Assembly (NCBI GenBank): GCA_963924565.1
Contig: OZ004610.1
Span: 31,620,001 to 31,684,000 of the forward strand
Length of the DNA stretch: 64,000 nucleotides
Direction: 5' to 3'
From: Ascidiella aspersa
Taxonomy: Eukaryota
Part shown: positions 2,460 to 63,585 of the stretch, piece after piece
Layout: each line of letters opens with the position of its first letter
How positions within the stretch are numbered: position 1 is the stretch's first letter
Translations under genes and position numbers: made by a program
The notes under the pieces: model-generated
Told to the model about the DNA's origin: nothing
What the model saw: the letters and a program-made list of their open reading frames with translations, nothing else
The model's database searches: none

Positions 2460-2680
2460 AGATAATTGCTAAGGCAAAAAGGTTGAGTAAATAGGCATCA
2501 TTTTGATTAGGACGTTTCGATACGAACTTGTATCATCTTCACTCTTCAGTTAATGTGACAGAGAAGTCTCAAAAACTTAAGATGGTACAAGCTCGTATAG
2601 AAGATGTCGATTTACTCGAAATTTTCGGCTTTGCAAATCATTTTCAAGCTACATTACAGATCCGTGCATAGTGACCCAAG
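2460..2680. mobile_element. Family A palindromic hammerhead-bearing repeat (other copies ~20030-20155, 37740-37785, 40262-40580, 45255-45385, 51300-51400)
   Basis: Shared sequence gatacaagttcgtatcgaaacgtcttaatcaagatgatgtcgatctactcgacctttttggctttgcaattcattatcaagctacattacag, in both orientations. Confidence 0.8.
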
Positions 2681-33936: not shown

Positions 33937-34318
33937 ATGAGTTTAGACTTGAGTAGGCATAGGATGGAGGGAATCAGCGGTCTGTCGTTGGTCTCACCCC
34001 CACAACGCTCCTTCATCGACAATATGATGCTAAAAAACAGCAACAACAACCTGATGAACAGTAGCGACTCGCCAATGCCCGATATCGCCATGAGCATTCA
34101 CAATTTCAACGCCCGGGGCGCCGCCGCCGCCACCGCCGCTGCTGGGGGCCTGGGTGGTCTAGTACCCCCCTACATGCGTGGCTCCCTGGGGGTGCTTGGA
34201 AACCTGAACGGCTACGGCCAGCATTTTCCTTTCCCGCCCAACTCGAACGATGGGATTTCTCCGAAATCGCCGCCCGGCCAAATGTCGATGTATGATAAGT
34301 TTGAAGGCGAGAGAAAAG
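33937..34318 (+). CDS. NR6A1: GCNF coding exon 1 (A/B region, MSLDLSRHR...YDKFEGERK)
   Basis: ATG at 33937 with an in-frame upstream TAA at 33802. GC-rich ORF with Asn/Ala/Gly/Pro-rich low complexity. Donor AAG|GTGGGA is phase 1, matching the next acceptor. Confidence 0.8.
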
Positions 34319-43300: not shown

Positions 43301-46300
43301 TAATTTTATCAACGTCAATAAAAATGATAATTTTTAAGTGTACTTAAATGGTATTAAAATCGAATTAAACGTGCGCTGTGTTTAGAATCTCATTTTAAGT
43401 TAAGGAATCACGCGAGTTAGACAAAAGACACACGCATTTTGTCCATTAAAATGGTAATTCACATAATTCAATAAAACGAAAATCGATGCAACATAAAATA
43501 TTTCCTGTCCTGCTGTAGGCACTTTTCCCTTCCCAACACGCTAAAGTGCACGTTATAACCGCAAATGTTGATGCATTAACCCTTTTAAGAATCCTAGCCG
43601 TTTTCTTGTAGCATTAGCAGTTGTATCCGCTTTTTGTGTTGTAAGGATGCCTCTCTGGCGTGAACAAATTGCCCAATTCACAAGTGCGGTGCGATTTGCA
43701 TTTAAGTTGTACGACGTCGCGTCGCTTTGAAATAAATCGCTCTTGTTTCCTTAAATCCGGTTCGCAATGGGCAGCAAAAGAATGTAATGTCGATTAATTG
43801 GAATAAGCCATTAGTTAGGATATGTCGTTCTGTGGAGCGCATACACGGCCTATACAAAAGAATTCCGCCGTGGCGTTTGGATATGCGCTAAACTGCGGAC
43901 GGTTGAAATTTCTCGTGATAAACGAACGACATCGTATCAACTTGCGAAATGATTGCGCAAAAAATTTTAAAATTGCTGCTGCTGCTGCTGCACTTTTTTT
44001 GACCCAAGTCGAAAACAAAATGCGAACCATGTTGGCGTCGGGTTCGCCCGCCAGTCACGACACTCTGTTTTTATTGGGTGGACTGTTGACCCATGTGATT
44101 GTGAGGTTTACAGTTGGTGTTGGCGGTTCGGAGCCCAGCAAGTCATCGTTCCTTTTGTTATTTTTTTTTAAAACGAATGCGTTGGTTGTAGGACTGTATA
44201 TTATTCGCCCCTGTTTGACAGTATTTGTTTGGCTGGAAATTTTTTTCTGCTTACAGTTGGTTTACAGTTGGTGTTTGCGGTTCGAAACCCCCAAGTCATC
44301 GTTGTTTTTTTGAAAGAATAAGAATGCGTTGCTATATTTGTTTTGCCCTGTTTGACAGTATTTGTTTGGCCGGCTATTTTTTGCTGCTATCTGAGATTAG
44401 CTTGGGTTTATTAAGTCGCCTTGTTCACGGCGTTTTGTTTTTTACGCAGGGACAACTCGTACTATCCGGGATACGGACAAACCTACCAACTACCTCCACA
44501 CCTCGCTCAATATGCAATGTACAAAGGTCAAATGCAGAGGTAAGTTAAAAAAAGACTTGCTATTAGTTCTCGCTCTTTTAATTTCGCTCCATAGTTTTTG
44601 CCTGGAGTTATTTTCAACGAGATACAGTTTTATTGCTTAAGCTTGCCGAGATATACTTTGAACTCTTTAGGATTCTATTGCTTGCTGCATATTATTAAGG
44701 TGCTTGATTAAAGTGTACGATTAAAAAAAACATAAATCAAGAAATATTTAATAAAAAAAAACGTTTGCGAAATAATGAGAATGCCCATAAACAAGTATAT
44801 CTCCATTTTTTTGTACTTTCAAGTTTTTAGGCTTATTAGGTATTACGAAATAATTTCAGTTATCTGCTATAACTATAACATAAGTAGGCGCTGTTGCGGC
44901 TAAATTTTTCCGCAAATTGTCCTCCCCCCCTATAACGGTCGCGTTTCCCCTATAAGTCCCGCTATGGAAGGCGTGCAATGCGTTGCATCCGCCCCTGCCG
45001 AAGCCGCGCATCTAGGATACTTTACCTTTTCCGCCGCCTAAACGCGCTTTTAATCAACTGCTGCCAAATTCAAATAGAGATAGATGGCCCCTGGCTGTTA
45101 ATTTTTAAATTTGTTCGTTTTGTACGTACCGATAATTTTTAGTGTACTAATTTGGTTCACTGGCACGGGTGCGTGGGTTCATTGCAGTGTTTTATATATT
45201 ATTAAGTTAGCGTTCCAATACTTTATAGAAAATTGAAAAAAAAGATTCATTCATCAAATTAAACTGAAGATAATACAAGCTCGTATCAAAACGTCTTAAT
45301 CAAGATGATGTCGATCTATTCGACCTTTTTGGCTTTGCAATTCATTTTATCAAGTTAAATTACAGAACTGTGCATAGTGTACCCATATATAATCTTGATT
45401 TAATAAAATAGGTAAAGCTACAAAAAATACTTCTTCATTTTTAACAAAACGTTACAGCCTTTCCAAAATTATGCATTTTGTACCCAGGAGATATAGAGCT
45501 TATTTAAAGATCATTGTCTTTGCCTAAAAATGCTAAAAACATTTCGCTCTTGAAAGAACAAGCTTGTAACCCATGTTTACTAAGGTTTCAATTAAATTTA
45601 CATAAGAAAGAACATAGACTTCTAACTGACCCTATAGTCCAGCATAACCCACTTAACCGTCCAACTTTTATCAAATAGAGATCGCTCGATCGGCCCTTAC
45701 TCCGAACTGACCAGCGCCAGTTTAGTAGCCCAGCTCGTTCAGGCCGAAGACACAGCGAATCTCGCCTCAATCAATTCACAGCTCGCATCCAAGGAAGGAC
45801 CCGTTTATAAGGTGAGATCATCGGCCTTGGGTTGAATTGTTTTAATTATTATAGAGAACCAGGTGTGAATGCGAGTGTGAATTGGGTCTGAATATCTAAA
45901 TTCATCCCCTGCTTGAAACGTAGTTTTTTTTTGTCTGTTGTGACAATTAGAAATTTTTGGATTTTTTTCTGTTTTTTAAGGTATAAAAATCGTTAAAGTG
46001 TTAAATTGTCATTCCGGCATAATTCTGTTATATAAAGTACCAACGTTTTCGCAATATATTGCCTACAAAAGATTGCCCGAATAGACGGTCGAAACGTTGG
46101 TATATAATTTAATAAAATTTTGCCGGAAGAATAATTTTACAATTGCAACAATGCCTGGCAGCAACAGTATATTCATTCTATAAATCGCTGTTGCGAATGA
46201 TTTACAACCAAGCTTTTCCCCATACAGGGCGAACTGTTCGGTTTTCTATGCAAAGTCGCCGATGAGATGCTTTTCCGTCAAATCGTCTGGATCAAGAAGT

Positions 46301-49300
46301 TGCCATTCTTCGACAGCATTTCAATCAAAGGTAAGCCCCCCCCCCCCTCCAAACAAACACACACTTACACAATCTCATCTACAATTCTACACACTCACAC
46401 TTACACTTACATACACACACTCAAACACACGCACCCTAACTCTCACACACACTTACACAATCACATATACAATTCTACACACACACACTTACACAATCAC
46501 ATCTACAATTCTACACACACACACTTACACAATCACATCTACAATTCTACACACACACACTTACACAATCACATCTACAATTCTACACACACACACTAAC
46601 ACTTGCACAAATACTTAAACTTAAACTCACACTTACATCTACACACTCATACTCGCACTCACACATAATCACACTCACGCTCAAAATTACACTCAAAATC
46701 ACCATCACACTCATACTAACACTCATACACACTTATACAAGTACTCACACTTACATCTACACTTACACACACACTCACCACTCAAACTCACACTCACACT
46801 CACAATCAAAACACACACTTACCACTAACACTCAAAACACACACTTACCACTCACACTCAAAACACACACTTACCACTCACACTCAAAACACACACAATA
46901 GCTCTTTAATTTATTCATTTGTTCGCTTGTATACGTTTGCGTTTACTTCAAGTTGTAGCAGTAGCGGCGTTAATTGCACGATTCGGGAAAATGTCGAATT
47001 CCAATTGCTTCCTGATCGACGAAGAACTTGAACCTGTACTTGGGCGAAAGTGAAAGCTATTTTTCCCCTTGTTGACGCTGCTATAGGAGCCAATTGGCTT
47101 TACAGCGATGCTTTGCTGGGAAGTTGTACTGTTAACAACCCGAATAGTGTCGACGATTGACGCTTTTCAGTCGACCGATTTGGGAAACAAAATATCAAGC
47201 TGTTTGTGGAATTGACCGAAATATTGGAACGGCGCATTTTAAAAATCTTTGTAAACACAAGCTTTTAAACCTACAAAACAGTATAGACTTTCTTGTCTCA
47301 GTCAAAATCAGTCACTATAGGTTCTAGTTTAGAAAAGAGAAATATATTTCGTCAATCACGGCATCATCAGTCTCTTATTGAAATAGAACTTTCAAACCTA
47401 TAGCTAAAATGTCGAAACAACGAAATGCAATCTTTGTCGAAATTTAAAGATTCTCAATAGATTTAAAGCGGCTGCACACTATAAAAACGGGCTTGCTGTT
47501 GTTATGTTAAAGTCTTGAACTTTTTTTCCCGCGACCCTCTAACAAATTAAGTTTCTCCCTAAGGGGTACATGGACCACAGTTTAAGAACCCCTTTGGCAA
47601 ACAGTTAAAAAAACAATGGCAATCTTGTGTAATCTATACAAGTATACGTTTTTCAGATCACACCACTCTGCTGAGCACAACGTGGGCCGAGATAATCCTC
47701 CTGGCCGCTCTTTGCGTCCATGAGGAACAACTCTTCGGAGATCTTGCCGACATCACGGCCAAGTACATTCCGGACAGCGAGGAACTATCGAGGTGAGCAC
47801 AAATTCTTTTTCGCCGCTGTTTAAAGCCAAACTTTTTACGATTACCAAAGGTGGCATTCGCGTGGTAAAATTGTAAAATTGTTCTTCCAGCAAAATTTTA
47901 TTATAAAATTGTTATGTCGGCAAAATTTCTTTAAAGTACCAACGTTTCGACCACCTATTCGCAATTATATTGCCCTGAAGAAGATTGCCAGAATAGGTGA
48001 TAAAAAAAATATAATTGAAATAAAAAAAATAAAAAAAATAAAATTGAAATAAAAAAAATAAAAAAAATTATAATTGAAACAATGCCTGCAACAGTATTCA
48101 TTGCGTGATAAAGTTCTATGGTATTTTGCGGAGTGTCGATCGTCCCGTTGTTTTTTAAGAGAAATAGGTTCTTCGCCATTTAATTAGGGTTGGTGATAGA
48201 CTTGTGTGGCGCAGAGAACGGTTTCTATCTATGAAACATTTAAGCTATTACATTTAAGGAGCATAATGGTTGTAGTAAGACGTAATAAGAATATCAAAGC
48301 CCATACAAACATAGGTATCACTTATATATATACAGTAATAATCAGTGCCTTCTCACTATGTTAAAACGAATGCAGATTTATTCGAAACGTTCAAATTGCT
48401 ACTTACTTCTGTATGGGCTTTGATATTCTTATATAAATTAAATTTCGTTGAAAAGTGCGCGAGGTTGTAGTACGTTGCTATTTTGTCACGGCACGCTTTG
48501 TAGAAAAAAGATATATCCAAAATATCGTGCAAGGCCATCTCTGCCTGTAGTTTATTTTACCGTAATCTCCAAATGCCATATCATATTAGCAATACACCTG
48601 ATTAAAAATAACCGCTTTGACGTGATTGGAGGTCCCGTGACCGGAAACCGTTTCTGTGACGTATCACACCGGTCGTGACGTAACTGTTTGTGACACGGGC
48701 GCTTTGAGACGGCCTTAGCGTTAGCACGCGCACCAAGATCACATAAGGCAGTGACCTCTGTAGGTTGAAGGTCGGCAAAGGCTCAAACCCGAGTCACCCG
48801 CGCTTGAAATCAAGTGTCAGGCGTTTGCCCTTCTGATTTGGCGAATGTGTACAATTGCCTGTTTAATCGTCACTGACCAGACGCGTATACCACAACACAC
48901 TGCTGCTGGCAGTTGACGCTATAAAGTTCAACCGTCGGTCAGCTGCCATTAAGTTATATATTTGTCGCCAATACTCGATGATTGTCGTTTTGGTTGCGTG
49001 TTAAACCCTCTTTGAGCACATTTTATTGCAAATTGAAGCTACGCAGGTGATCTGAAAAATAACCGAATATCTTGAATTGATTTTGAATGTAAGTTTAAGC
49101 TCAAATCTAACGTAGGTGGAATTGCACTTTGACGTAAAAATATCAAAGCACCCTTTGATACTGGAAAGCATATGGAAATTTTTGTGATAGATTCTAAGTA
49201 TTTCTAATAATTCTTTATTTGTTTTGCAACATATTGTCGAAAGCGTTTAACGAAATTAGAAACGGACGTATTATTTTTTTAGCAATCAATTTATCTCGCT

Positions 49301-52300
49301 TCAAAGTTACCAAATACACAACGGTTAACCAGGGTTGCGAAATCCACTATACAAACGTGACGAGCGCAGGGAAAACTAAATTGATGTATAAAACAGTTAT
49401 ACAACCACCTCTTAGTCCTACTTTTGCAAAGATGGGTCGCTTCCAATGCGCTAAGGCAGTGTTTTTCAACCCTTTTCCCCGGCGAACTGAATGCTAAGCG
49501 GCCTAATCAATTTAAACGGCGGGCCAATTAAAAAACTACACTGCGCTAAGGTGACCCTGACTCTAAAAAATGGCGAAAGCGGCGTGCAAAGAGTGGATTG
49601 CGCAACTTACAAAGACTCGGCGCTTTAAGGAAGTAGCGAAGCGTGGAGGTGGCGCACAAAGCTCATCCCATCTCGTGAGCTTCCTGGCCGCGCTGTTATT
49701 GATCCACCGTTGTCGTCGCTGTCTCTAAAGCCGAGTATACGGGCTCCTGGAAAAAGCACAATGACGCATCCCGCGCATGATGCTCTACACTCTTCTCCGC
49801 CTCTTTTAGCCGGTCTCTTGCTGTGTGTTGACAGGAAAGTCAAAAATTCCCGCTTTCGCAATACCGTGGTGCCTGTTGTTGTTGATAAAGCCCCGGGGTT
49901 AACTGAACTGACGGGAACCCGTGGCCTTTCTCCTCGGGGAAAACCGCCCTTTCGTCATAAACAGAGTAATCTTCGAGTTTATGAACAGTCGAAACTGACG
50001 TTTTAATTAGGATTGTGCGTCTCGTAAAACTTTCAAGAAAACCAAAAGAGTTAAAGATCCTAAACTTTTGTAAGCGTGCGTTGCCTTTATCGCAACGTTA
50101 TAATGATTTTTGCAACTAGCTTTGAAATTCAAGCAGCGACAGTTAACAAAAAGTCAAATGCGTTTTCATCCACATTTAAACGCCCGTTTTTTAATAAATA
50201 TGAACAAAATCTACTGCATTTCGCAACGAAACGCTTTACACTTCACGCGGCAGTTAAAAAAACGCTTTTAGGCTAATGTGCACTTGCCAGACTCTCCTAA
50301 CCTTCTAATGTCATTGCTGCGGTCGCCCGAAACCGATTTATCATTTGCAAGGCCCTTAAAACTGGCGCTCGGGTATTCTATATTCTATTCGCGCGTGAGT
50401 AATACATAGATCAAGTCAAAAGCGGCGAACGGTCCTTCCGCGTTCAAGGCGGAAGTCCCTATTAAAAGGCGACGATAGAATGGCTGGCGAGCGCCGCAGT
50501 AAACGGAGAAGCGCTGGCGCATTACCATCAAGGCTTCCCCCGTCCCCTTACACGTTATCCATCTTGCTGGCCAACCAACGCCGGCCTTCGTTAACGCTTG
50601 TACGGCGTCGGTGACACGGTCGCGGTAACACGCCAAGGCATAATGCATCACGCCGGCCCGTTTTCTTTTTGCAACTTGCGATGCATTGACACCTTCCGAT
50701 CCGCGGCCCTTAATGGATTTTCGCCCATACACCACTCAATATACTAAAACTGGCTCCGGGAATGGATATAGAGAGCAGAAGCGGCTCTTAGGCTTTTCCT
50801 TCGGCGTTGCCCGTCCTTCCTTATCGCAACTTCCCACTTCTATTTAAGCACCCACTTCGTGCACATCCATCAGCCACGCGCTGATTTAATTTTAACCACC
50901 GCGCGTTTTTTAGCCACCAGTTCATCCATCTTCCCCGGCAAGACACGGCGCTGGTAACCGAACGTGCGGTGGTCGGTCATATGCGTTGGTGAAAACCTAA
51001 AGGCCTCTGCCCATAATTGTAATCGAAAGGCTGCTACCAAAGTAATTATCACGTCGAAAGCGGTGCGACAAATAAACGAAAAGTGGTTGAAAAATGGAGT
51101 GGCGTGGGTTGCACAAAAAATTGCACAGGAGAAGTACAGAGCTAGGGTAGTAACCTCAACAAAATTCTGTATGGGCTTTTTCTACACTTACACCTTGAGT
51201 CCAGCATTTGTGTTTAATAAACTCATTTTGTTCTGCTTTACTCTGACGGTTGAGTTTTCAGAACTCATTTAAAAATGTTCGGTACTGATCAAAAATTTTT
51301 TGGCTTGATTATGATTTGCAAAGCCAAAAAGGTCGAGTAGATCGACAGCTGCTGTAAAAATTGATTATCAAGTTACATTACACATCCGTTCATAATGTAC
51401 CTAAATCATTTTTTTAACTTTTCCATTTTTTAAATCGTTCTGCCTCTCCTTCATTCAGGTTCACCGACTACGAAATGGAGATTCTGGAGCGAATGACCTT
51501 CCTCTACCAAAAGTTCTCGCATCTTCGAATCGACAAGGAAGAATACGTGATCATGAAGGTCATCAACTTCCTCAATCAAGGTCAGTGAGCTCAGAAGTTT
51601 TTTTTTTTAATTTTAGAAAGATATAACATTTGTTAGTACTTATATTTGTAAATGGCCGTATTCGTCTAATTCTAAGTAGGGTAACCATTAGAAACTGACC
51701 TGATGAAGCACGGTTGTGCAAAAGCTTGTCAAGATTTTGATACCATCTGTCTTTATGTAGTGTACCATTTTACCCTATCTTTATATATCTTAAAAGGCCG
51801 CACTTGTCTATCCTAAGTTGGTTAATAAGATGGCACGATATAAAGGCAATTGTATTAAATTCCCGACAAACTTTCGCAGAACCGTGCTTCATCAGGTCAA
51901 GGATTCTTGCTTGTTTACCAATTTTTCTAAATTGCCGTATTTTGTCTAATTCTAAACAGGGTAATGGGGTGGCACTGTATAAAGACAAATTGTATTGAAA
52001 TCTTATTAGTACTTTTACCCGATGTCTTAGATCAATGTAAACTTTACCAACAGCAGTTCAAGTACTATATGTGAACGCGGCAGTACTAATTGTACTTATG
52101 AAGATTAATCTTTCTAAGACGCATATGGGTTTAGTATATGCGGGTCTGAGGCACCTGTTTTGCTCGTCACCTGATATTTGCACTTTTGATAAACATCAGC
52201 CATGGCTGCCTGACTCATTTCGCACACCGCTAACCAGTCACACCGGGCACGTCAACGGAAGGTAGCTAAGGAAAATAACAAAACTTCCAGATGACTTATT

Positions 52301-55300
52301 TCCTATACCGTTCCGGTCGTCCAATACACACACACAAACTTACGCACTTGCGCACGCGATACACACACCGCTTTGTTGTTTTTGCACCTTGGTTTTCTGT
52401 TTTCGGGCGAAAACTTCCGCGAGATTGGAAAAAGCAGTTTTCCGTTAAAACCAACGAAGCAACAAACTGCTGTAAAACGACTAACATTCGTAGATTCGGA
52501 AAGTTGCAGGTTCCTAGCGTTAAAAACTTGCATGACCATATAGTTAGTCGATTGTATGATCCCACCTTAAAACATGAATCACGTTTATCGCGCATACCCT
52601 AACCAGTGTTTCTTAACCTTTTATGGCCTACGGCACCCCTTAAAAGTTGTAAATAGTTTTTCAATACCCCGACTGGAATTTTCGTAGAGTATTTTACTGA
52701 AATGCCACTATAAATGGAACTAGAACGACACAATTAACTTAAAACATGCAGGAACATGTCATTTGATATAATGGCCTCTAATCGTACACAAATAGTTGTA
52801 TCAAGAAGCTTACCAATTCAGCAAATATCAGATTCCTAATTTTTTTTTTAAATCCCCATCGGCATCCTTGAGCATTAGAAACGGCACCGCGGTTGAGAAC
52901 CACTGCTCTAAACGGTTTACTAACCTTTTGTACAGTTTTAAAGCTCGTTTTTGGCCACGGCCAGTACCCATACCCCTTCCTATTTTTAAGGCCATTTTTC
53001 AATCTATACCCGCGTTTTGCGTCAACCGTCACCGAAAGCGCCATACGATGGTCGCGGAATTTTTCGCCACTCTAATGTACAACTGGTCGCCAATTCCCAG
53101 AAAATAAGGCCCTTCATCGGAGTATGTGTTTACGAAATGACGCAATGCTTCGAAGCATAATGGTTGGAATTGTAGTAAGAATATCAAAGCCCATATAGAA
53201 GTTGGTAGCATTTTGAACGTTTCTAATAATTCTATTAATTTTCAACTTCAGATGTACTACTTCTGTATGGGCTTTGATGTTCTTACTACGTCCTACTCTG
53301 TATTTTAGAAGTGATTGGACGTGTGTGCGAAATTACCAGTTTTAAAAAATGTTTTGTGATTTTAAATTTTACCCGACTTATTAATCCACCACTTACACGG
53401 CCGACAGGTATTTTTCTACTCGAAATAGTCGCCCGATAAACGTGCACAAAAGCCAATCAATCGCTGGTCTTCTGCCATTTCGCGCAAATACGAGCGAAAT
53501 GAAATACGCCAGGACCTTGTCTCGGCGGGCACATAACGAGGCACGCTCTGCAATTCCTAATCAGGGCACGACCACGACTTTCAAGCTCCATTTAAGAAAC
53601 GGCGACGGCTCGAAATCGTTGGCACTGTGTTAGGTTTGACGAGCTAGACGTCTAGCCGCATGCAAGTGCTCAAATACCGACGGCCATTAAGGCGTTGCGA
53701 TCAAGTTGGCTTAACCCCTGTTGTACGGCAATTTCTGACCTGACGTGCGATACGAACGCCAACTTTTGAAAAGTCGTACTGCGCTCGTGTTCTGAGTCGC
53801 CTGGGCACTTTTGCGTTGTCATGTCGGACTGATTTCGTGATGATCATAGTCACGTCCACACAATATAACAATTTTATCGCGTCTCGCTGGGAAATGCTTG
53901 TCTGCGACCTATTAAAGGTCTGGGTCAATCAATTAAAGATACACACGCATATATGTGTTAAACAACTGTGATGTAGCCCTTCTGAAGTTGCTTTTTGACC
54001 AATGATTAAGGCTTTCGTATCAATAGTACACTGAAAGCCATCGCAGAATCACTGAATCTGTCGATCTTGCTTGCATCATTGATTGACAGATTCGGTGAGT
54101 CTGCGATGACTTTCGGTGTACTAATAATGATACGTAAGCCGTAAAAAAACAGCTTCAGAAGGGCTCGATCACAGTTGTTAAAAACATATGCGTGTGTATC
54201 TTTAATTGATTGACCCAGACAAATAACGGGTCGCAGACATGGCGCGATGGACGGCTATTTACTAGATTGTGTGGACGTGACTGTGATCTGCACGAAATTA
54301 GTCCGGTGTACTCGTCTGGGTCAACTATATTTCTCCCCAACCGACCCAATTAGAATCAGCACATTTAAAGCTGCTTTTGCCTTTAGGGATCGAATCTCAA
54401 TCAGTCGCCAAATCTAAAAACCAAGCTCCGACGTTTTAAATTCCGTGCTCAGCTATCGTGGCGAATTGTAATTGCGGAAAGGTCGAAAGGACATCAATAT
54501 AGTATTATGTTTATAAACCCTTGGCAAACGGCAAGACGGGTGGCAAACGGCGGTTCCAAGAGCAAACTGCAGTTTATTGCGAATCGTTCGTGCCGATCAT
54601 AACTGGCCTTTCGTGTCAACAAGCACGCTACCAACAAAAAACAGAACAATAGGAGTGACGTCACATCATTTCTGCGAAGTTCTACCAAACGTGTCTCGGC
54701 GTCCGAGTCGGCCAAAATGTCAGCAAAATAAGCCGTAGTAGGTTGCAAGTTCACTTGAAAAATTCGGCCAAATTGTCATAGCCTATACTCCATGACGCAC
54801 GGGTCTTGTCCAACCTTTAATTACGTCTATCGCTTACGGTTTAATTTTGCTTGGAATTATCAACGCCATATGCCTTTTGTTTGCCGACCAACGTTACTAT
54901 TACGTCACGCCTTTGCGCCACTTGAATTAACCGCAAGGAGGCGCTATTACGTGAAGCGGTAAAGCAAATAATCATGCCCAAGTCCGTATTGCCTTTGTCA
55001 ATAATGCAAAACCCAATATAATTTGGAGCAAAATGGTTGGAGTTTGTAGTAAGACGTATAGTAAGAATATCAAAGCCCATACAGAAACAGGTAGCATTTT
55101 GAACGTTTCGAATAACTCTTTATTTATTTTCAACACCCAATATACTTATTATACCCAACATACTTTATAGTTATGTTTAAGTTGTTGCAACCCCGGAAAA
55201 ACACCAAGACTGGACCGCGCGGGGTTTTCAATCTTTCCCACAGAAAATAAACACCATTTGTTCGCATCCAACTTTAGCTTGCGCGCCCCAAGCGCGTTAT

Positions 55301-58300
55301 AAGTGAAGCTACCCGCAAGTGACCGTTATAGAACGCACTACACACTAGGACGCCAGTCACGTTTTTTCACTTTAAAGATAGCGGGCCAGCGTTGGCAGGA
55401 GTTACCCGGAAATCTGCCTCTGCGCTTTATAGCAGCGGTAATTGCAAAGGCCGACCATGATGGCATCGTTGCCCTGTATAACTGTTCTGTGCCGCACTTT
55501 TTCGAGAAACGCAAACCAGAATAGACGGTCGGGAAATAGAGCCGGGAAACAACGTTGACCACACCATGCCATCCAACTTTTTGAACTCTGGCGAGGTTAA
55601 ACGCTAGCTAAACGTGGCCGTTAGTTTTCTAGGCCAGTTGCGGACACATTAAGGCCCATGCCAATATTAAATAAGACGATATATCAAAAGCTTTTTTCGT
55701 CATTTTATTTATCAATAAAAAAAACATATATCAAAATGCACGTTAAATAAGGACGATATATCAGAATTGTCGTTTTTTCCTGCGAGCGAGATTTAGGCGT
55801 AAAATATACAAATCAAATAGACAATGAAAATCCAGCAACAGTGTTTATCGTCGGCAGGAGTTTTTAAATCCCCATATTCTCAAAGCCGCCAAATTCATTA
55901 CCGACTGGCCAAAGTACTCTGCTATCTCGCGTCATCCAAAAGCCTACCATTGCGCAATTATTCAGTAATTAGAATTTCGGAATTCCCAGTGACGCTAAAG
56001 ACATTTCCAGTGACCGTCATAAAAACGCCTGTATTTCATACGAGGAAGTTTAGAAACGAAACCCGCCCGAACCCATCAAACAAATGATCTCAAATGGTCT
56101 TTTGCCGACAGACCCCGTTTGGCCTTGGGCACTTCAATGCGTCAGCGTGACATAGCGATAAATTTGGCCGCGCGAATAGGCTTAGAGCCAGCACCTTCGC
56201 GGCCCCAAAGCTCTATAGATGACAATTTTTTTGTGTTTTTTTTTGAAGAATGTCTAAAAAGTGTGCCAAGCAAATAATGACGTCATTTATTCGTGACTTT
56301 AAAAAAAATATACAACAACTCTAATAGCTAACACGCAGTATGCATCATTGTTAAATATAAAAGTACATAATGGTGTAATAAATCCTAATTTAGTAACCCT
56401 GATGCGGTCAGCTGGTATCTGCTGCCGAAACGTCGGTTTATACTTCGTTTACACCAGAATAGCAATTTCTATCTATTGGTATAAAGTCCATTTTACATTA
56501 TAACAAAATGCATAGAAACCTTTTTTTATTTTTAACAATAAGATTTCAGAACACTATATACGGATCTGTTCATAAGTTCAATGGTGAAAATAACGCCCCA
56601 AATAGACGTTAAAAGCGACATGCTTTATTTTCAAACGTTTCGGCAATTTCGGATATCACTGATGATGGCATTAGAAATTGCCGAAACGTTTGAAAATAAA
56701 GCATGTCGCTTTTAACCTCTATTTGGGGCGTTATTTTTAACAATAAGATTTCAGCCAGTGAATTTGTAGTTTCGCAGCGTTTTATTTAGCAACGAAGCCA
56801 TACTGGTGTAAAAATCTTTTTTTGTAAATGCCGTATTTGTCTAATTCTAAATAGAGGAATCAGGTGGCACTGTATAAAGACAAATTACAGTGCCACCTGA
56901 TCCTCTATGGTGTAAAAAGGGCAAACATAGCGTTTCCCCGGGTCGAACCCGCTTAACACCCGCGCATTAGTCACAAAACGCGTCGTTCCGTTAATGGAAT
57001 CTAAGCAAGTTCATAGTAAGGCTAACGCGCCATCTAAACTCTTCAACCCGTACTTCGTGGCTCTGACGTCATAGCCACTCAAAAGTGGCTCTGCCCTGAT
57101 TTTAACTCGAAATGCCCCTTCGAAAATTTTCTGTTTGTTTTCGACGTTGCATGGCCCTTTATTCTATCGCGAAGTGCACCCGTTTGTTTTGGCCGGTCAA
57201 TGCTATCACCCCTACTATACTACATACTGCCAGCATCTTTCCGCGAAAACGACTTTATTTAAAGAGTGCCAAATGGGTTGCGCAAAACTCGAATTTCGTT
57301 TTCCTGTCGTATTGTGTTCCATTTACCACGGCCTGTTATTGTGTTCTATTTACCACTGCCTGTTGATCGGGTCAACTTGCCCTGTGTAAAGTGAATTCCG
57401 GGTAAAATTTAACAGCTTCCTCCTATCTTATCAATGGCCAAGTTAATCTATAGAAAGAGCCGCTTGAATCTCTTTGTTTCATTTTGCGAATTGACGATAT
57501 TCTTCACAGAAACGATTTGCTAAAAATGTTACGCATCTATTTTTTCTTTTCCCTTTTCTTTTCCCGAGGCGATTAGTTTGAGAAACACGGCCGATAAGTT
57601 TTACTTTGCGAATTTGCATCACATTTTTGGCCGGGCATGAAGTTTGTAGACTCACTTTAGTAACAAACTCCGTAATCAATGTAAGAGTGCTAGTAGCAGT
57701 GTTTTTTTAAGGTGTTTTCTCCAGCGGTTTCCCAAATTTTGGACTTGCAACTTTTTGGTATTTAAATGAAACACTTGCGGTCTCTTAAAACTACTTAGCG
57801 GTCACCCAAACCAAACCTTAAAGAAACCCTGGCTAGAAGTTTAAATATTAATCATACAACCCTTACCTAATGGTACGTTGATGTAAAACCACAGCAAAGG
57901 TACCAACTGTAACTGTGCCTAAAGGTTTTAACTTAAAGAGTTCAAGATCTAACAAGTTGATGTCTTAGCCTTTTGGTAAATTACGGATACTTTCAAAGTA
58001 TCCGGCATCGCCTTCTATGGTTACATCTAAATATCCTTATTTGGGCAATAAGGGGTTCGCGGAACGCACTTTTGGTAAAGGCTCAATACTTTCAAAGTAT
58101 TAGGCATCACACTATGGGTACATTACCTCACTACTCATACTCATATTTTGGGCAATAAGGGAGGTTGGCCAATTGCAGTTTTTGTAAACCCTTTTTGTAA
58201 AGGTCTTAATACTTTCAAAGTATTAGGATCACATTCTACAGTTACATTACCTCAATACCCTTATTTGTGCAATGAGGGGTTCGCAAACGCAGTTTTGTGA

Positions 58301-59515
58301 AAAAACGGCGCACTTCTACATCCTTTACTCTTAATTTGCGTAGACATCAAGGGCCTGGAAGAGGTCAATCGCGTCGAGGAAATCAACAAGCGCTACTGGT
58401 ACGCCTGCCAACGCTTCACCGAGATGCGAGCTCTGGAACGTTCCATGGGTCGACGTGGATCGAACGGATCGTCACCTGCAAATGGAGCCTCTCGTTTTCG
58501 GGACCTGATGCTCTGTTTGCCCGAGATCCGCTTCGTCGCTGGCAAGATGCTAAATACTGACGTCTCCAAGCTGCCTCTGCTCTTTAAGGTTGGTTTTCTT
58601 TCTCTTGTTTTTGGCGTTTTTGTTTTTTTCTGAAGGCGTTTTTGTGTGCTTTAGTGGGGGGGGGGGGGGGTGGTTTTTCATTTATTTACAACAAGATAAA
58701 AAAAGTAATGAAATTCAGCATGTAGCTAACATTTACAAAATCCTTTCACAGGATCAAAGAGTTCTCTAGCAAATATATAAGAAGCATCATTTTCTTTTAA
58801 CTAAAATATTCTTTGAGACAAATTGGAAAACTGCCTTGTCAGTTTCTGCTTGTCGTCCTTACGTATCCGTTTGGAAATTCTGATAAATCCACTGTCAAAA
58901 TATCACCATAGCCCAACTACAGCAGAATACTCTATCAAAGCTAGAAATTCCGTTGAGATCTTTTGTCTTGTCTGACCTTTGCTAGAGTATTCTGCTGTTA
59001 CTTGTCAGGAATTAAGGTCGACATTTATCTCACAAGGGCCAAGGTGATTTCCATTATCACACATATTCAGTGTAACATTTATATCCCAACTTAACCGAAC
59101 CTCGTTTCCCAACCAGGCCATCCTACACACATGCAAGCTGCAGAAGGTCCAGTCCGGACAACAACAACAACAACAGCAACAACAATCGACCGGCCCAGGA
59201 CAGGACCACGGCCCCTCAGTCATCAACAACAACAACAGCAACGTCATCATCGGTTCAGCACCCCCATCACCCACGTCATCACCGCCTCAACAGCGCATGC
59301 GTGAAGACGACAAAATGGAGGCTGCAGTGACGATGCTCGACCTCACCCAACGTCAGCAGGACACACCCACTCGTCACCATGGCAGCAGCGGTTCCATTGG
59401 TCCGCCGTCGACCTCGTCTAGCGCCTCCAGCGGAGGGCACACGGTCATGTCCCACGGGTCGCCCCGGTCCAGCCACGGGCGCAGCAGTCGGGACAGTACG
59501 GCCGAGTCCTCCTAA
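33937..59515 (+). CDS. NR6A1: Germ cell nuclear factor (GCNF, nuclear receptor 6A1); spliced CDS join(33937..34318,39580..39810,41059..41114,42558..42976,44450..44539,45679..45811,46228..46330,47657..47792,51459..51580,58344..58588,59117..59515), 771 aa
   Basis: C4 zinc-finger DBD ([12 protein letters not shown]) followed by AIREDGMPGGRNKSIGPVQISDEEIERI, nearly identical to vertebrate NR6A1 as recalled. LBD motifs LFRQIVWIKKLPFF, MKVINFLNQDIKGL, NKRYWY, DLMLCLPEIR and LPLLFK. All ten introns are GT..AG with compatible phases (1,1,0,2,2,0,1,2,1,0); total length is a multiple of 3. Confidence 0.95.
35650..35805. mobile_element. Family C palindromic repeat (relatives ~36900-37050, 46005-46180, 47900-48100)
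   Basis: accaacgtttcg...cgaaacgttggt inverted arms, central (C/T)TGANGAA core, shared tail atgcctggtagcaacagt. Confidence 0.7.
36548..36890. mobile_element. Family B palindromic repeat (copies ~12885-13000, 13598-13770, 15858-16102, 20555-20705, 28488-28572, 30537-30632, 36378-36490, 48258-48432, 53153-53297, 55025-55135)
   Basis: Consensus arm gagcataatggttggaggttgtagtaagacgtaataagaatatcaaagcccatacagaagtaggtagcattttgaacgtttcgaataactctttattcattttcaacat, usually with an inverted partner. Confidence 0.85.
36792..36839 (+). ncRNA. Hammerhead-like motif with U3:A8 covariant core, family B
   Basis: TCATGATG-TTGAAAA-T-GAATAA(agag)TTATTC-GAAA-CG-TT|CAAAATGA. Confidence 0.6.
36938..36979 (+). ncRNA. 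Hammerhead motif, family C (G12->A, probably inactive)
   Basis: ACC-CTGACGA-A-GGCGACTT(gaat)AGGTTGTC-aAAA-CG-TT|GGT. Confidence 0.65.
39580..39810 (+). CDS. NR6A1: GCNF exon 2: DNA-binding domain (two C4 zinc fingers)
   Basis: [37 protein letters not shown]...CQFCRLLKCLQMGMNRK; acceptor ttccaacAG, donor AAG|GTGTGG. Confidence 0.97.
40392..40582. mobile_element. Family A palindrome with central hammerhead (A6->T) in GCNF intron 2
   Basis: Inverted arms around CTGTAGA-T-GATAC..GTATC-GAAACGTC (40491-40522). Confidence 0.75.
41059..41114 (+). CDS. NR6A1: GCNF exon 3: C-terminal extension of the DBD
   Basis: tatttcAG|(A)IREDGMPGGRNKSIGPVQ|GTACGC. Confidence 0.96.
41885..42335. mobile_element. 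Dispersed element with AAGTCAAGTCA subrepeats (also ~14755-14900, 18265-18540, 23750-23870, 30475-30525, 38415-38505, 63815-63965)
   Basis: Recurring aagtcaagtcattt, gtccgattatgagca and gaaaacagtgactta blocks. Confidence 0.7.
42558..42976 (+). CDS. NR6A1: GCNF exon 4: hinge with poly-Gln
   Basis: ttcgtAG|ISDEEIERILSGKDFEDEER, then a CAA/CAG tract and Ala/Pro-rich sequence; donor AG|GTGAGC. Confidence 0.93.
42618..42683 (+). repeat. Coding (CAA/CAG)n poly-Gln tract; a second tract at 59159-59185
   Basis: Direct reading: Q6-H-Q3-H-Q11 in exon 4; Q9 in exon 11. Confidence 0.9.
44450..44539 (+). CDS. NR6A1: GCNF exon 5: hinge (DNSYYPGYGQTYQLPPHLAQYAMYKGQMQR)
   Basis: tttttacgcAG acceptor, AG|GTAAGT donor, 90 nt, phase 2-2, open frame. 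Confidence 0.85.
45679..45811 (+). CDS. NR6A1: GCNF exon 6: LBD helix 1 (SLVAQLVQAED)
   Basis: Resembles vertebrate SLIHQLLSAED; aaatAG acceptor, AAG|GTGAGA donor. Confidence 0.88.
46228..46330 (+). CDS. NR6A1: GCNF exon 7: LBD helix 3
   Basis: GELFGFLCKVADEMLFRQIVWIKKLPFFDSISIK; catacAG / AG|GTAAGC. Confidence 0.96.
46356..46897. repeat. CA-rich minisatellite (36-bp and 26-bp units) in GCNF intron 7
   Basis: acacacacacacttacacaatcacatctacaattct x4; cactcaaaacacacacttaccactca x3. Confidence 0.9.
47657..47792 (+). CDS. NR6A1: GCNF exon 8: LBD helices 4-6
   Basis: DHTTLLSTTWAEIILLAALCVHEEQLFGDLADITAKYIPDSEELSR; ttttcAG / AG|GTGAGC. Confidence 0.95.
51459..51580 (+). CDS. NR6A1: GCNF exon 9: LBD helices 7-8
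   Basis: FTDYEMEILERMTFLYQKFSHLRIDKEEYVIMKVINFLNQ; cattcAG / AG|GTCAGT. Confidence 0.95.
51685..51925. mobile_element. Family D element: two convergent hammerhead motifs (51696-51731 +, 51863-51900 -) flanked by a ~40 bp direct duplication
   Basis: TGAC-CTGATGA-A-GCAC(ggtt)GTGC-aAAA-GC-TT|GTCA, and on the reverse strand TTGAC-CTGATGA-A-GCA(cggttc)TGC-GAAA-GT-TT|GTCGG; flanks 51645-51684 and 51924-51964 are near-identical. Confidence 0.7.
52604..52905. mobile_element. hAT (Charlie-like) MITE; similar termini at ~22285-22551, 29688-29993, 57722-57832
   Basis: TIRs CAGTGTTTCTTAACC / GGTTGAGAACCACTG; right flank CTCTAAAC resembles an NTCTA(G/A)AN hAT target site. Confidence 0.6.
53901..54238. 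mobile_element. Foldback/MITE-like ~330 bp imperfect palindrome
   Basis: gtctgggtcaatcaattaaagatacacacgcatat... versus ...atatgcgtgtgtatctttaattgattgacccagac; arms pair almost to the centre. Confidence 0.75.
56395..56438 (+). ncRNA. Hammerhead motif, family F (A9->C); degenerate paralogue at ~7405-7450
   Basis: AACC-CTGATGc-GGTCAGC(tggtatct)GCTGCC-GAAA-CG-TC|GGTT. Confidence 0.65.
56550..56737. mobile_element. Young family E foldback element
   Basis: 64-bp inverted arms (56587-56650 / 56674-56737) with 1 mismatch; 24-bp direct repeat TTATTTTTAACAATAAGATTTCAG at 56526-56549 and 56731-56754. Confidence 0.85.
56656..56693 (+). ncRNA. Minimal type I hammerhead ribozyme motif, family E (intact core)
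   Basis: TCA-CTGATGA-T-GGCA(ttagaaat)TGCC-GAAA-CG-TT|TGA. Confidence 0.8.
57970..58300. repeat. Degenerate tandem of a ~100-bp unit, 3 copies
   Basis: tactttcaaagtat...ttgggcaataaggg repeated. Confidence 0.7.
58344..58588 (+). CDS. NR6A1: GCNF exon 10: LBD helices 9-11
   Basis: DIKGLEEVNRVEEINKRYWYACQRFTE...RFRDLMLCLPEIRFVAGKMLNTDVSKLPLLFK; gcgtAG / AAG|GTTGGT. Confidence 0.95.
59117..59515 (+). CDS. NR6A1: GCNF exon 11: end of LBD (AILHTCK) plus long F-domain tail, stop TAA
   Basis: aaccAG|AILHTCK matches vertebrate VVLHSCK; open for 133 codons to TAA at 59513-59515. Confidence 0.9.
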   Translation, partial: AILHTCKLQKVQSGQQQQQQQQQSTGPGQDHGPSVINNNNSNVIIGSAPPSPTSSPPQQRMREDDKMEAAVTMLDLTQRQQDTPTRHHGSSGSIGPPSTSSSASSGGHTVMSHGSPRSSHGRSSRDSTAESS

Positions 59516-62430
59516 AAGCGCCCCGGATGGAAATTTTCGACTTTTTGTTGTTTCGCGTCCCGGTCTCACACCATACATTGATATCTATATTCTTTCTGTA
59601 TTCTATACGAATTTTGTTTCGACATCCTCGACCGACACATCACAATCAGTATACTACCATGTTCTTCTTAACCATGTGTAAAGCATATTGCGCCAATATC
59701 GACCAACAAGCACATTCCAGCTTACAGCAGTTGTTCAACAAACCAGAAAACTCGAGCCTCAATTTCAGCAGCACAGCTGTGCTTGCAAGATGGAGCCCCT
59801 TTAAACTGTTTGAGAGCAAGCGGTCTCCCCCTTCCGAAAGAGTCAGTCTCACCCCCACGTAACTGTGACGCAACAAAAGCCTCCCTGTCTACCTCGCATC
59901 CGACGTGCCTCTCCTCTCCTCCGACTTTCTTCGTTCGCTCTGTAAATAGAAACAAATAACCTCGAGTGACCTCCCACCACCATCCACCACTTGCTGTGCA
60001 CGAGAGCGCGAAAAATCGAAAGATTTTTTTTTTTTTAAATTTTTTTTCTCGAAAAAGCCTTAGCGTTCTTGTCCGTGTGTTTTCCTTTAACTTCAACGCG
60101 AGCGGTTTATCTTGTTTTCAAGTTCTCTGATTTTTTTGGTTTTGTGTGGCGATACCAGTTCCCCAAAGATCAGCGGCGAAACTTTTTTTCACACTTTCCC
60201 AAAACGAAGCTCCGCAAATTTGCCCCCCATCCTTCGACAATCGCAAATAGCCCCTTCCGACGCCCCCAATTAGGTCCTTTTGTTTTCGAACCCCCCTTCT
60301 TTTTTGTAGCTCGTCCCCAATCGACAGCATTCTCAAAATCGCGCCAGACAACATATTTTTGCTCAACAAAAAGCCACTGACCCTTCAGCGCTCCACCATC
60401 GACGTTGTTTTTTGTTTGTTTTTTCCTCCGCCTTTTCCAACGTCGCCTACAAACGAATCTCGCGTTTTCCGTTTCCCAAGCGGCTTACTTTCTCAGGGCT
60501 CCAAATGTGTGCAAGACTTTTGTTTTTCATTGCGTGACGCGTTTTCTAGTGTGTGTGCGTGCGTTTGTGTGTGCCTTTTGGCATTTCCTTAGGGCCAGCC
60601 CTGGCCTAATTCTCATTATACTTTCATAGCTTGAGGTACATGCCTATAGGCTGACTACTAACCAAAGCGTAGGGTAGAGTTCTCAGGCTGCTCGCAATTA
60701 ATTCTATAAGCTATGCGTTCATATGCGCCCCATTACCCAGGTCTATTACTTCCGTGTGCCTATTTTCGCCCCTAGTGCGCGCGTGTGTGCGTGTTTTGCT
60801 GTGTTCTTTTTCGCCCGCTCTCCACCCCAGGAAAGTGTTGTTCGCTTTTTTTTTGTTTCGTCGCCGAGAGTTGTTCAACGACGTACTCCCCACTATTATA
60901 CCAAAAAAACAACGCGTCCGAAAATTGTGTTTTTTTTTTCTTTTTCCTCAGTGCGCCCGACGCGGCCCGATTGTGAACATTTTTCGTGTTTTTTTTTAAT
61001 TTTTTTTAATTTTTTTTTTCGTGATGCGAGCGCCCCTTGTTTATTTTGCCCTCTTCAGTTTAAGGTCGACTTAACGTTCTTCAAAGGTGGCCACAGCGCG
61101 GTCGCATTTCGACCGTTTCGCTTTCTTCAATCGACGTCAGACAAAACTTCACGCGGAGCCGAATTTTTTTCCCGATTTTCTTCACCCGGTTTCAGGGACA
61201 CACGAACATAAAACCGACCTCTTCATTTACTAACCTCGCCGATTTTTTTCGCCTAAAAGTCAAAACCGCGCGAATCCTGTGATTTTCAATTTTTCGCCGC
61301 ACACTCTTCACCAACAAGGCACCGAAGTCTCAAAAATACCGAAATCTTAAAAAAAATAGCGTTCTTCATTATTTTGCGGCCTCCATAAACCCGCTGTTAA
61401 ACCTCAAATCGCGCCATTTTCTAGCGTTTTTTACAGGCCGACAGAGCCTCTACAGTTGATCTACGATACTTACTTCCATTTCGCAACGCTCAAAAAACCG
61501 CCGAGCCCTCACAGCTTTTGCTTTCGACCAAATCGTTTTTTTAAGAGACCAAACCTCACCTGATTGCACGACGCCACCATTTTTTCGGCCCACAAACGTT
61601 ACTACGGAATTTCTGTCTTCTTTAGTAGGAATCCTTTGTTTGCGGGAAGTGTCTTACTTTTGTCCCACTTACTCAGGACTTGTGGCACGCGCTTGGGAAA
61701 AAAAAACCTTACTGTTACCGTTCGCCTGTGTTTTTGATCGCGTTTCGTTTTCCGCCTTTAACCAATCAGCCGTCTCCGCTTTTTTCGCGTTTGCATATTT
61801 TTTTGTTTCGTTCGTTTTCGCGCTGTTTTTTTTTTCTAATCGCACTCGTGACTAATTTATCGTCCAAAATGATACCTCAATCACTTTATGCCAGCAGCAG
61901 CAGGAGCGCCAACTACCGGCCGCTTTTTTCATGTGGAAACAACCACGTCTGGCGCTAAGGCATCGCTTGTTTTTTGCCACGCTACCTCAACCGACGGGCG
62001 GCGTGATTTCCGTGGTTTTTGTCCCTTTTTTCGCCCGTTTTTCCGTTTCGTAGAAAAACCCCCGATTTTGCGAAGTTGTCCCTTTTTGTTGGTAAATTTT
62101 TCGGCTTTTTTGTCACTTTTTTTCGTATAATCCACGCTCGAGTTCGGCCGGAGTTATTTTGTTTTGTGCATACCCAGAAAAAAAACCTATAGTTGTGTAA
62201 TGTGCGACTTGTGTGTGTTTGAGTTGTTGTTTCGACTGACTGATGAGAAATACCAGCAACATACGGACAAATATGCTACGCTGTGCCCCCCCAATTTTTT
62301 TTGTTTGAGCGTGCGAACGTCAGTCCCCCTCCCCGTCTTTCCCGACAAATCCATTATTTCAGATTGATTCCTATTTTGTTGTCGCCCTTTGTCGCCGAGT
62401 GTGGCAAATAAAGCACGCGCACATTGACTT
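59516..62430 (+). other. Putative long 3'UTR of GCNF
   Basis: U-rich, free of the dispersed repeats seen everywhere else; first AATAAA seen is at 62407-62412; repeats resume downstream. Confidence 0.6.
62407..62412 (+). terminator. Candidate polyadenylation signal AATAAA
   Basis: First canonical hexamer seen after the stop codon, followed by U/GU-rich sequence. Confidence 0.5.
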
Positions 62431-63059
62431 TTCGTGAGTTCTTGAAAAAAAAGCGACCGAAAAATTAAGCTGCCAATTTGTGAAGGTTTTAGAACTAGCT
62501 GTTCTAGGTGTTTCCATATTTCATAAGCTTGAAAGGTCAATTCTTAATTATTGTTTGGTTCACGTTTGGTTAAAAAAATTGTTTCGAGTTTTAGGTCATA
62601 ACAAAGTTAGCACAAAGCAGTCTTTTTCCTATCTACGCCTGTTGTTGGTTTTCAACTTTGGTGTTTGGTTAGGTATTCACTTAACCAAAACCAGACCTAA
62701 CGCGAGTATACTTGGAAAAATAAAGATTCAATTGAAATTTTTTCAAATTAAAGTACCACATTCTAATGGGCAATGACTTTTTCGACAATGTTGTTTGGTT
62801 CAAATTTGAGTAATTTTCAAGGTTTTGTTGAATCAGTTTGTGGTTGGTTTACACAGTTTAGGTAACTGTAAAACCTTTAGCTTTCGTAAGGTGGACGACA
62901 GAAATAAAATTTGAGCAGTTTAGCTTTTAAGGAGGGACAGTTAAGTTAAGAAACAAAAAAGTTCTTACTCAATTAAATCCATTCCCAATAAAATTCGTGC
63001 TACGTGCTTTCTATACAGTTTACCTTATGCCGGACTCCAGCCATAAGACCGAAATTAGA

Positions 63060-63585
63060 CAATATCAGCGTCGGAAAAAAAATAGAACACAGTTTGGAAT
63101 AAGACCTAAATAGGACTAATACCTATTCGTCGTTATAACGTCTAAATCGGAATAAGACCTAAACACGTCGGAATAATACCAAAATGGCCCAAATAAGGCC
63201 TCTAACCCTAAACCCCACCCTAACTTCATCAGTAATGATTTCAATCCTAACCCGATTTCTAATTCTACCCATTGCCCACCATTAACCCCAAACAGGTCGA
63301 AACAATCATGTGTCAAAATTGCGGCATCCAAACGTTGACACCAAAACGGCCGATCAAAGACCGGTGTGACTTAATCGCCCCATAACCTTTACCTACAGTT
63401 TGAGGCGTTATTTTTCCATTTAGGACTTATTCCGATAGGGTTAGATCTTATTCAGACGATTTTAGATTTAGTCTGTCGTGGATCTTATTGCAGTTTTCAT
63501 CTTTATTATGTCGTTGATCTTTGATACTATGGTATTGTAGATTGTTCTGATTTACATATTATTGCTTTGTAGGTATTTTCGCGTG
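63060..63585. repeat. Dispersed repeat with ggaataagacctaaa subunits in inverted arrangement; relative at ~27075-27270
   Basis: Repeated ggaataagacctaaa / tttaggacttattccga; shared aaccatagtatt... Confidence 0.55.

Follow-up and report, generated by a model that had tools for sequence, protein, structure and literature searches.

The GCNF gene and its 3' untranslated region

The stretch of DNA examined here, referred to below as the window, consists of 64,000 nucleotides (nt) from the ascidian Ascidiella aspersa (GenBank assembly GCA_963924565.1, contig OZ004610.1, positions 31,620,001 to 31,684,000 of the forward strand) and contains the gene for the receptor GCNF, also called NR6A1 (Table 1). 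The long 3' untranslated region (UTR) of this gene carries seed matches to three microRNA families, let-7, miR-125 and miR-1497, which are likely to be selected sites through which these microRNAs would damp GCNF, under a proposed two-stage control.

Judged by its sequence, the gene is the single-copy ascidian GCNF/NR6A1, the identity already given in a preliminary description of the window made from its letters alone. The zinc-finger DNA-binding domain matches NR6A1 in the PDB with an E value of 6e-41, compared to 3e-27 for the next family (NR2C2), and a genome search with the DNA-binding exon found one copy. The ligand-binding domain groups with named GCNF/NR6A1 proteins: it is 80-92% identical to six ascidian proteins over 203 core columns, three of which bear the name GCNF or NR6A1-like in their source, and its last exon shows 88% identity with Phallusia GCNF and 73-80% with the named Ciona, Clavelina and Styela proteins. 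The exon model has AG/GT boundaries at all ten introns and a single open frame throughout. Pfam gave no real family for a set of 26 single open frames, to which the DNA-binding exon did not belong.

The UTR is taken to be about 2.9 kb long, and to hold every site discussed below, because RNA coverage, the end of an assembled contig and the first AATAAA after the stop codon all agree. Raw reads of RNA run X4 cover positions 59105-62362, with first mates all on one strand, and coverage is zero from 62409. This reading used about 6% of a single raw-read run, stage not given, and placed 74 reads at roughly four-fold depth; the call of plus-strand RNA follows the rule for most stranded libraries. 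One spliced X3 contig links the last two exons with the intron gone and another ends at 62418, while contigs from X1 and X2 span the intron and the DNA past the UTR. No antisense reads fall on the UTR in X4. The preliminary description had allowed that the transcript might end before the sites, an objection that falls away, as stranded RNA reaches all of them. Proximal polyadenylation left no trace in the window (there is neither an AATAAA or ATTAAA before 62407 nor a step in depth), though eggs or other stages may differ. The UTR is C/T-rich in composition. The four runs together show 24 substitutions and 8 indels, none in the five let-7 and miR-125 sites or in the seven 6-mer cores of the miR-1497 matches; since only about 0.6 changes are expected in these 78 bases, the comparison lacks power and is left out of the evidence for the sites.

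Table 1. The GCNF gene, its 3'UTR and the microRNA matches (window positions unless another sequence is named)
Feature	Position	Strand	Remarks
GCNF/NR6A1 coding region	33937..59515	+	11 predicted coding exons, 771 amino acids; start codon and first exon are prediction only
C4 zinc-finger DNA-binding domain exon	39580..39810	+	top PDB match NR6A1
Last ligand-binding-domain exon	58344..58588	+	query behind the discovery of the orthologue; spliced to last exon in X3
Last coding exon	59117..59515	+	stop codon 59513-59515; exon and stop position match in orthologue L014
3'UTR, about 2.9 kb	59516..62425	+	approximate end 62418-62430; stranded RNA coverage, X3 contig end
let-7 site 1, 7mer-m8	59889..59895	+	374 nt past stop; sequence match
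miR-125 site 1, 7mer-m8	60492..60498	+	sequence match
miR-1497 array, seven seed matches	61052..61368	+	within 317 nt
miR-1497 8mers	61077-61084, 61123-61130	+	
miR-1497 7mer-m8	61178-61184, 61362-61368	+	
miR-1497 6mers	61052, 61220, 61305	+	
miR-125 site 2, 7mer-A1	61192..61198	+	sequence match; within miR-1497 array
let-7 site 2, 7mer-A1	61873..61879	+	in the most conserved UTR block, 61853-61895
let-7 site 3, 8mer	61982..61989	+	109 nt after let-7 site 2
Polyadenylation signal AATAAA	62407..62412	+	first AATAAA/ATTAAA 3' of stop; RNA coverage ceases just beyond
CTCAGG copies	window 60492, 60682, 61672; L014 11339, 11761, 13907, 14745		
Tandem let-7 array, five hairpins	C1:35598581-35601479		

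let-7 and miR-125 sites and the genes for their microRNAs

The preliminary description listed three let-7 and two miR-125 motifs, and all five are present on the plus strand at the positions it claimed. The three let-7 sites pair canonically with the let-7 seed read from the same genome, and the last of them is the sole let-7 8mer in the window, both strands included. To call the five a cluster, as was done there, goes too far, as they are scattered over 2.1 kb. Their number is another matter. Dinucleotide shuffles of the UTR give an expectation of 0.17 for let-7 (P about 0.0004-0.0007 for three sites) and trinucleotide shuffles one of 0.32-0.33 (P 0.003-0.005). Against a genomic background of 400 kb, sampled as 40 stretches on both strands, the expectation is 0.13 (P 0.0003), and none of 240 background segments of 2910 nt has three sites. 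For the two miR-125 sites the expectation is 0.05-0.11 (P 0.001-0.007), a count of two being reached in 4 of the 240 segments. The claim that the sites exceed chance thus stands for both families, with the reservation that the window by itself ranks the two seeds just 19-30 among 16,384. A rank of this order is suggestive and no more, and the case therefore rests on an orthologue.

Are the corresponding microRNAs encoded by this animal? The preliminary description allowed that they might be missing, and the genome contains both. A search with the Rfam let-7 model found six let-7 hairpins, five in tandem and one at a second locus; one of the six scores above the Rfam cut-off, and each has the canonical seed at its start and a hairpin fold. 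One member of the tandem array has a divergent central region, and the array compares with four tandem let-7 copies reported for Ciona (PMC3384580). At the second locus (C1:14.11 Mb), mir-1473, let-7 and miR-125 follow one another in this order within about 600 nt, an arrangement that has been described for Ciona (PMC3384580). Here miR-125 was located by reading the mir-1473/let-7 cluster directly; the Rfam lin-4 model (RF00052) gave no match in the genome, and the mir-10 model (RF00104) matched the mir-1473 hairpin. A mir-1497 hairpin lies at C9:15447309 with a genome-wide E value of 0.003, under the Rfam cut-off. The mature miR-125 and miR-1497 (3' arm) sequences read from the genome are identical to the Ciona savignyi entries.

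Several other words in the UTR deserve brief mention. A miR-124 match occurs once in the window UTR (7mer-m8, 60571-60577) and once in the UTR of the orthologue described below (8mer, 12434-12441), and is not enriched. The word TGTAAATA at 59941-59948, 46 nt past let-7 site 1, is presumably a Pumilio-type element; no such word occurs in the orthologue. An AGCAGC word considered as a miR-15/16 site was rejected, being on the wrong strand.

Recurrence of the sites in a distant ascidian

A single scan of metagenomes, queried with the final ligand-binding exon, yielded the orthologue; 499 pattern matches led to two related loci, L013 and L014. Because the two loci agree at 99.65% identity and L013 stops short of the UTR, there is a single independent orthologue. 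The exons of L014 match those of the window gene, and a tree of eight ligand-binding regions places it beside the window gene and Phallusia with moderate support (90/89). Its distance from the window gene, 0.39 changes per column, compares to about 0.17 between two Ciona species; 24 of 39 fourfold sites differ, so that neutral sites are near saturation, and blastn of the window UTR against L014 finds no UTR alignment. The UTR of L014 was taken as 10841-14980, a choice made up to the second AATAAA, its real end not being fixed.

This UTR has exactly three let-7 sites, and their succession of types, 7mer-m8, 7mer-A1 and 8mer, is that of the window. The first site follows the stop codon by 435 nt, compared to 374 nt in the window, and the second and third are separated by 118 nt, compared to 109 nt. 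The expectation for let-7 is 0.21-0.23, with P about 0.001 for three sites; there are also two miR-125 sites, both 7mer-m8, with an expectation of 0.16-0.19 and P 0.011-0.021. These tests are independent in the sense that let-7 and miR-125 had been picked from the window alone before L014 was examined. When all 16,384 seeds are ranked by enrichment in both UTRs, let-7 takes second and first place, and miR-125 third place both times. Among composition-matched seeds, three sites in both UTRs are found for 1 of 1963 (dinucleotide matching) or 1 of 1133 (trinucleotide matching), in each case let-7 itself, and two sites in both for 1 of 948 or 1 of 1239, in each case miR-125 itself. Conservation of the seeds, which the preliminary description had named as a check, is therefore seen for all three let-7 sites, by type and order, in one distant ascidian orthologue.

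At the level of single sites, let-7 site 1 has a counterpart of the same type at L014 11275, with a local identity of 22 of 29 nt. Of all local alignments of the two UTRs, the top one (36 of 45 nt, including a 13-nt exact word) is centred on let-7 site 2, and let-7 site 3 sits in a segment with 16 of 17 nt identical. For miR-125, the likely counterpart of site 1 is at L014 11339, where the two UTRs have a 10-nt exact word in common; the other L014 site, at 11761, is a 7mer-m8 that, like miR-125 site 2, lies among miR-1497 matches, flank homology not being evident. When flanks are scored with the seed as anchor, let-7 site 3 is among the best 0.4% of the 1938 7-mer pairs that the UTRs share, and let-7 site 2 becomes joint top if the anchor is moved three bases upstream.

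Some further similarities of the two UTRs lie beside these sites. Just upstream of let-7 site 2, a conserved stretch of about 20 nt (window 61853-61872, L014 about 14022-14039) pairs poorly with the 3' part of let-7 and is perhaps a protein-binding element. A GTGCCT word about 20 nt 3' of let-7 site 1 is kept in both species. The miR-125 offset 6-mer CTCAGG ranks first of all 6-mers in both UTRs, with three copies in the window and four in L014; the extra copies may be additional weak miR-125 sites.

An array of miR-1497 matches

TCTTCA is the remaining word that ranks at the top in both UTRs. It fits the tunicate microRNA miR-1497, for which the genome has the hairpin described above. The seven matches in the window form the densest signal in the UTR, and one that the preliminary description missed. 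L014 has six matches, including two 8mers and two 7mer-m8 sites, with five of the six within 650 nt. The matches are strongly biased toward the sense strand (7 against 0 antisense in the window, 6 against 1 in L014), and one 8mer is inside a 12-nt word common to both UTRs. No tandem repeat accounts for the array or underlies the sites.

Seven matches were not reached in any of 3000 shuffles of the window UTR, and the corresponding P value for L014 is 0.009-0.015. The most that the genomic background offers (80 strands of 10 kb) is three matches per 320 nt. Measured against this background the window has P 2.8e-5, which is still near 0.001 when multiplied by 50 families. Because the microRNA was picked after both UTRs had been scanned, all of these P values are post hoc. 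As a separate observation, X2 and X3 show a T-to-A change at 61369 that would turn the last 7mer into an 8mer (61369-61371); the call is uncertain because of an adjoining 27-nt insertion.

How firm is the case for selection on the sites? Apart from the post hoc choice of miR-1497 and the chosen end of the L014 UTR, a number of results weigh against it. The evidence of conservation rests on one independent orthologue, and clear flank homology is limited to let-7 sites 2 and 3: the seed-anchored flank score of let-7 site 1 is reached by 39% of shared 7-mer pairs and that of let-7 site 2 by 10%, miR-125 site 1 is also at the 10% level (and just one of the two miR-125 sites has a likely counterpart), and the score of the miR-1497 site at 61077 is equalled by 23%. 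At the 7mer level the miR-1497 seed ranks 8-10. The predicted accessibility of the five let-7 and miR-125 sites is ordinary (percentiles 0.34, 0.31, 0.44, 0.73 and 0.10), their AU context of 0.43-0.60 is unremarkable, and 3' pairing is not conserved. Finally, L014 has an AATAAA at 11477, 637 nt past the stop codon and beyond site 1 of both let-7 and miR-125; a short isoform ending there could escape miR-1497 and the later let-7 sites. The window has no counterpart of this signal.

One might argue from such results that the shared words are due to chance, or are kept for RNA-binding proteins or local structure, with the microRNAs inactive on them. In favour of this, the UTR is C/T-rich, and the two weakest null models for let-7 in the window are the mononucleotide (expected 0.59, P 0.017) and the tetranucleotide (expected 0.61, P 0.013). 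In addition, simple GT repeats come near the top rank under the dinucleotide null, and something else may bind at let-7 site 2, since the conserved block runs on for about 20 nt upstream, where 3' pairing with let-7 is poor. Against this stands the ranking under the trinucleotide null: with shifted forms of a word counted as one, the three highest-ranking words correspond to three microRNA families that the genome encodes. The types and order of the let-7 sites are kept across a near-saturated divergence, there is neither a tandem repeat under the sites nor an antisense read over them, and a scan of both UTRs with Rfam found no family, the sole hit in L014 being a sub-threshold bacterial small RNA. 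Considering all of this, we regard an explanation without microRNAs as quite improbable. The let-7 sites are very probably under selection, those for miR-1497 probably so, and those for miR-125 fairly probably, at a confidence a little below that for miR-1497.

Ancestry of the proposed link between let-7, miR-125 and GCNF

The relation of let-7 to this gene has been studied in mammals. In mouse cells let-7 is reported to repress Nr6a1 (Gurtan 2013, as cited in PMC9755267 and PMC10909835), and multiple let-7 and miR-196 sites occur in the Nr6a1 UTRs of mouse and other vertebrates (PMC9755267), the mouse UTR having sites for miR-196 and miR-10. Clearance of Nr6a1 times the switch from trunk to tail in the mouse (PMC9755267), and a 2024 review calls the role of let-7 in that clearance only potential (PMC10909835). 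Two of three miR-125a-5p sites in human NR6A1 have been validated by luciferase assay in hepatocarcinoma cells (PMC11763984), and a 2026 preprint includes Nr6a1 among predicted let-7 targets, many of which are common to vertebrates (10.64898/2026.10.02.755877).

The ascidian gene resembles its mouse counterpart in being orthologous, in having several let-7 sites in a long 3'UTR, and in pairing an embryonic receptor with a late-rising microRNA. The differences are that the mouse link is experimental and the ascidian one comes from sequence, and that the sites cannot be aligned. With respect to miR-125, the same seed family is involved in human and ascidian, with two validated sites in the former and two sites per UTR in the latter; the human result, however, was obtained in hepatocarcinoma cells, and only one of the two ascidian sites has a likely positional counterpart. 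The bilaterian mir-100/let-7/mir-125 cluster is represented here by its tunicate form, mir-1473/let-7/mir-125, in the same order (PMC3384580). Two of the three members of this cluster have sites, since mir-1473 matches neither UTR with either arm as cut from the hairpin (in the window UTR there is no 7mer site for miR-1473). A broader parallel is the heterochronic control by let-7 and lin-4 (miR-125) in nematodes and flies, with targets such as chinmo and broad-Z3, where the two microRNAs likewise converge on one developmental transcription factor; the target gene is a different one, and ascidian GCNF is not known to have a timing phenotype.

Did ascidians and vertebrates inherit this link, or acquire it separately? 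Seed matches are short and let-7 sites are easily gained in the long UTRs of embryonic transcription factors that are sensitive to dosage, and the sites could have been selected in ascidians having arisen independently of the vertebrate ones. Such turnover is suggested by the vertebrate inputs that are not shared, as the window UTR has no 7mer for miR-196 or miR-10, reported for the mouse, and L014 has one miR-196 7mer, and also by the gain of an array for miR-1497, a microRNA found only in tunicates. Outside chordates, no paper on insect Hr4 with let-7 or miR-125 was among the matches listed, and a study of the silkworm GCNF-related receptor predicts a species-specific microRNA, not let-7 (PMC2824724). 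Yet the very two families that top the ascidian ranking are those validated on mammalian NR6A1, and a single origin in the ancestor of two sister groups would be the simpler account. An independent origin thus seems somewhat doubtful, and the balance tips slightly toward inheritance of the let-7/miR-125 link from the common ancestor of tunicates and vertebrates. The fuller proposal, that the link with GCNF is an ancestral chordate timing device which predates the vertebrate trunk-to-tail switch, has persisted in ascidians at the level of single sites, and to which tunicates added a cooperative miR-1497 array, is more tentative still.

To our knowledge, few microRNA-target pairs are known across large evolutionary distances. 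The search found no published account of microRNA sites in the GCNF of ascidians; subscription-only papers, among them Oikopleura and Ciona miR-124 target studies, lay outside it. GCNF/NR6A1 is likewise absent from the available portions of the supplements to ascidian microRNA papers (including PMC5831862 and PMC2243180), where lists by gene-model number could hide it, and a Halocynthia target prediction was confined to 400 nt past the stop codon. The three conserved let-7 sites would make the link testable in a simple chordate, and would date it to before the vertebrates if outgroups agree. Seed-based repression is itself an ordinary mechanism, and what the ascidian UTR points to is likely a mechanism of known kind, carried outside the vertebrates and modified by a tunicate-specific input. 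The importance of Nr6a1 in vertebrates, where it sets trunk length, adds interest to the comparison, in vivo control by let-7 being still open there (PMC10909835).

Expression timing and a possible two-stage control

Published expression data come from other ascidians. Ciona reads mapped to Halocynthia hairpins number 236,134 at gastrula and 510,127 in the larva for miR-1497, the highest counts among the 60 of 323 rows examined; for let-7 hairpins they range over 164-5956 at gastrula and 106-2273 in the larva, larval reads being not above gastrula in four of five rows (PMC5399378). That these counts are from Ciona and not from Ascidiella also weighs against applying them to the window. Ciona let-7 peaks in adults (PMC2884542). 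GCNF has been associated with the embryo-to-larva period in both Ciona and Phallusia (PMC7827873), and in Botryllus it is high at the morula stage, where it is linked to enrichment in germline stem cells (PMC7949349).

The preliminary description suggested that let-7 and miR-125 might time metamorphosis or germline events. In its sharpest form, this would mean that both microRNAs rise at settlement and shut GCNF off, so allowing the juvenile programme to begin. The expression of GCNF in the embryo-to-larva period and in the germline-enriched morula of Botryllus would fit, as would the mouse precedent of a trunk-to-tail switch set by Nr6a1 clearance, with the caution that the part played there by let-7 is merely potential. 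The Ciona profile of let-7 speaks against it, being low at both gastrula and larva, with no rise in four of the five rows and a peak in adults. A study of metamorphosis in C. savignyi, in its available text, mentions let-7 and miR-125 nowhere but in an evolutionary list and in a reference, and reports miR-1497 as not upregulated at 42 hours post fertilization. Because larval let-7 reads are not above those at gastrula in four of five rows, let-7 as the trigger of metamorphosis is possible but unsupported, and we consider it unlikely.

The published timing of GCNF, miR-1497 and let-7 in other ascidians instead favours a two-stage relay. Seed pairing without consistent 3' pairing would mean ordinary Argonaute-mediated repression: the bound microRNAs would pair by their seeds, destabilise GCNF mRNA or lower its translation, and act additively, with the miR-1497 matches, 26-85 nt apart, perhaps also cooperating. 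The embryonic stage would belong to miR-1497, very abundant at gastrula and in the larva, which would restrict GCNF or remove it. In the juvenile and adult, let-7 and miR-125 would hold GCNF, a repressor that acts in embryo and germline, at a low level. An embryonic brake followed by an adult lock-off appears to fit published expression better than does the timing of metamorphosis.

Zebrafish miR-430 and fly miR-309 are lineage-specific microRNAs that clear messages in the embryo. miR-1497 is like them in its very high embryonic abundance, its restriction to one lineage and its multiple seed sites in an mRNA of early development; it differs in its unrelated seed and in that one mir-1497 hairpin was found, as opposed to a large cluster. 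If the relay operates, GCNF would be a conserved target of miR-1497, pointing to this microRNA as a clearance factor of the tunicate embryo. No validated target, function or clearance role for miR-1497 was found in print, larger result sets having been covered in part. In any event, the array provides a concrete candidate target for what is, in the rows examined, the most-read conserved microRNA of Ciona embryos and larvae.

Other features of the gene

High-copy dispersed repeats, recognizable from very high contig depth and reads on both strands, occupy the last intron (58977-59061) and a region downstream of the gene (63055-63500). mir-181 sits inside introns of vertebrate Nr6a1; it was absent from the hits in searches of the window and the genome, which is weak as proof of absence. 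Polyglutamine tracts are present in the hinge of GCNF (42617-42683) and in its C-terminal tail (59158-59185), the L014 tracts being shorter. The tail itself extends about 125 amino acids past the ligand-binding domain (window 59117-59512, L014 10481-10837). Blocks of it are kept in Phallusia, Ciona, Clavelina and L014 and are mostly lost in Styela, and one block contains an MLDLT-like word that we take to resemble a CtBP-binding motif, as a candidate only.

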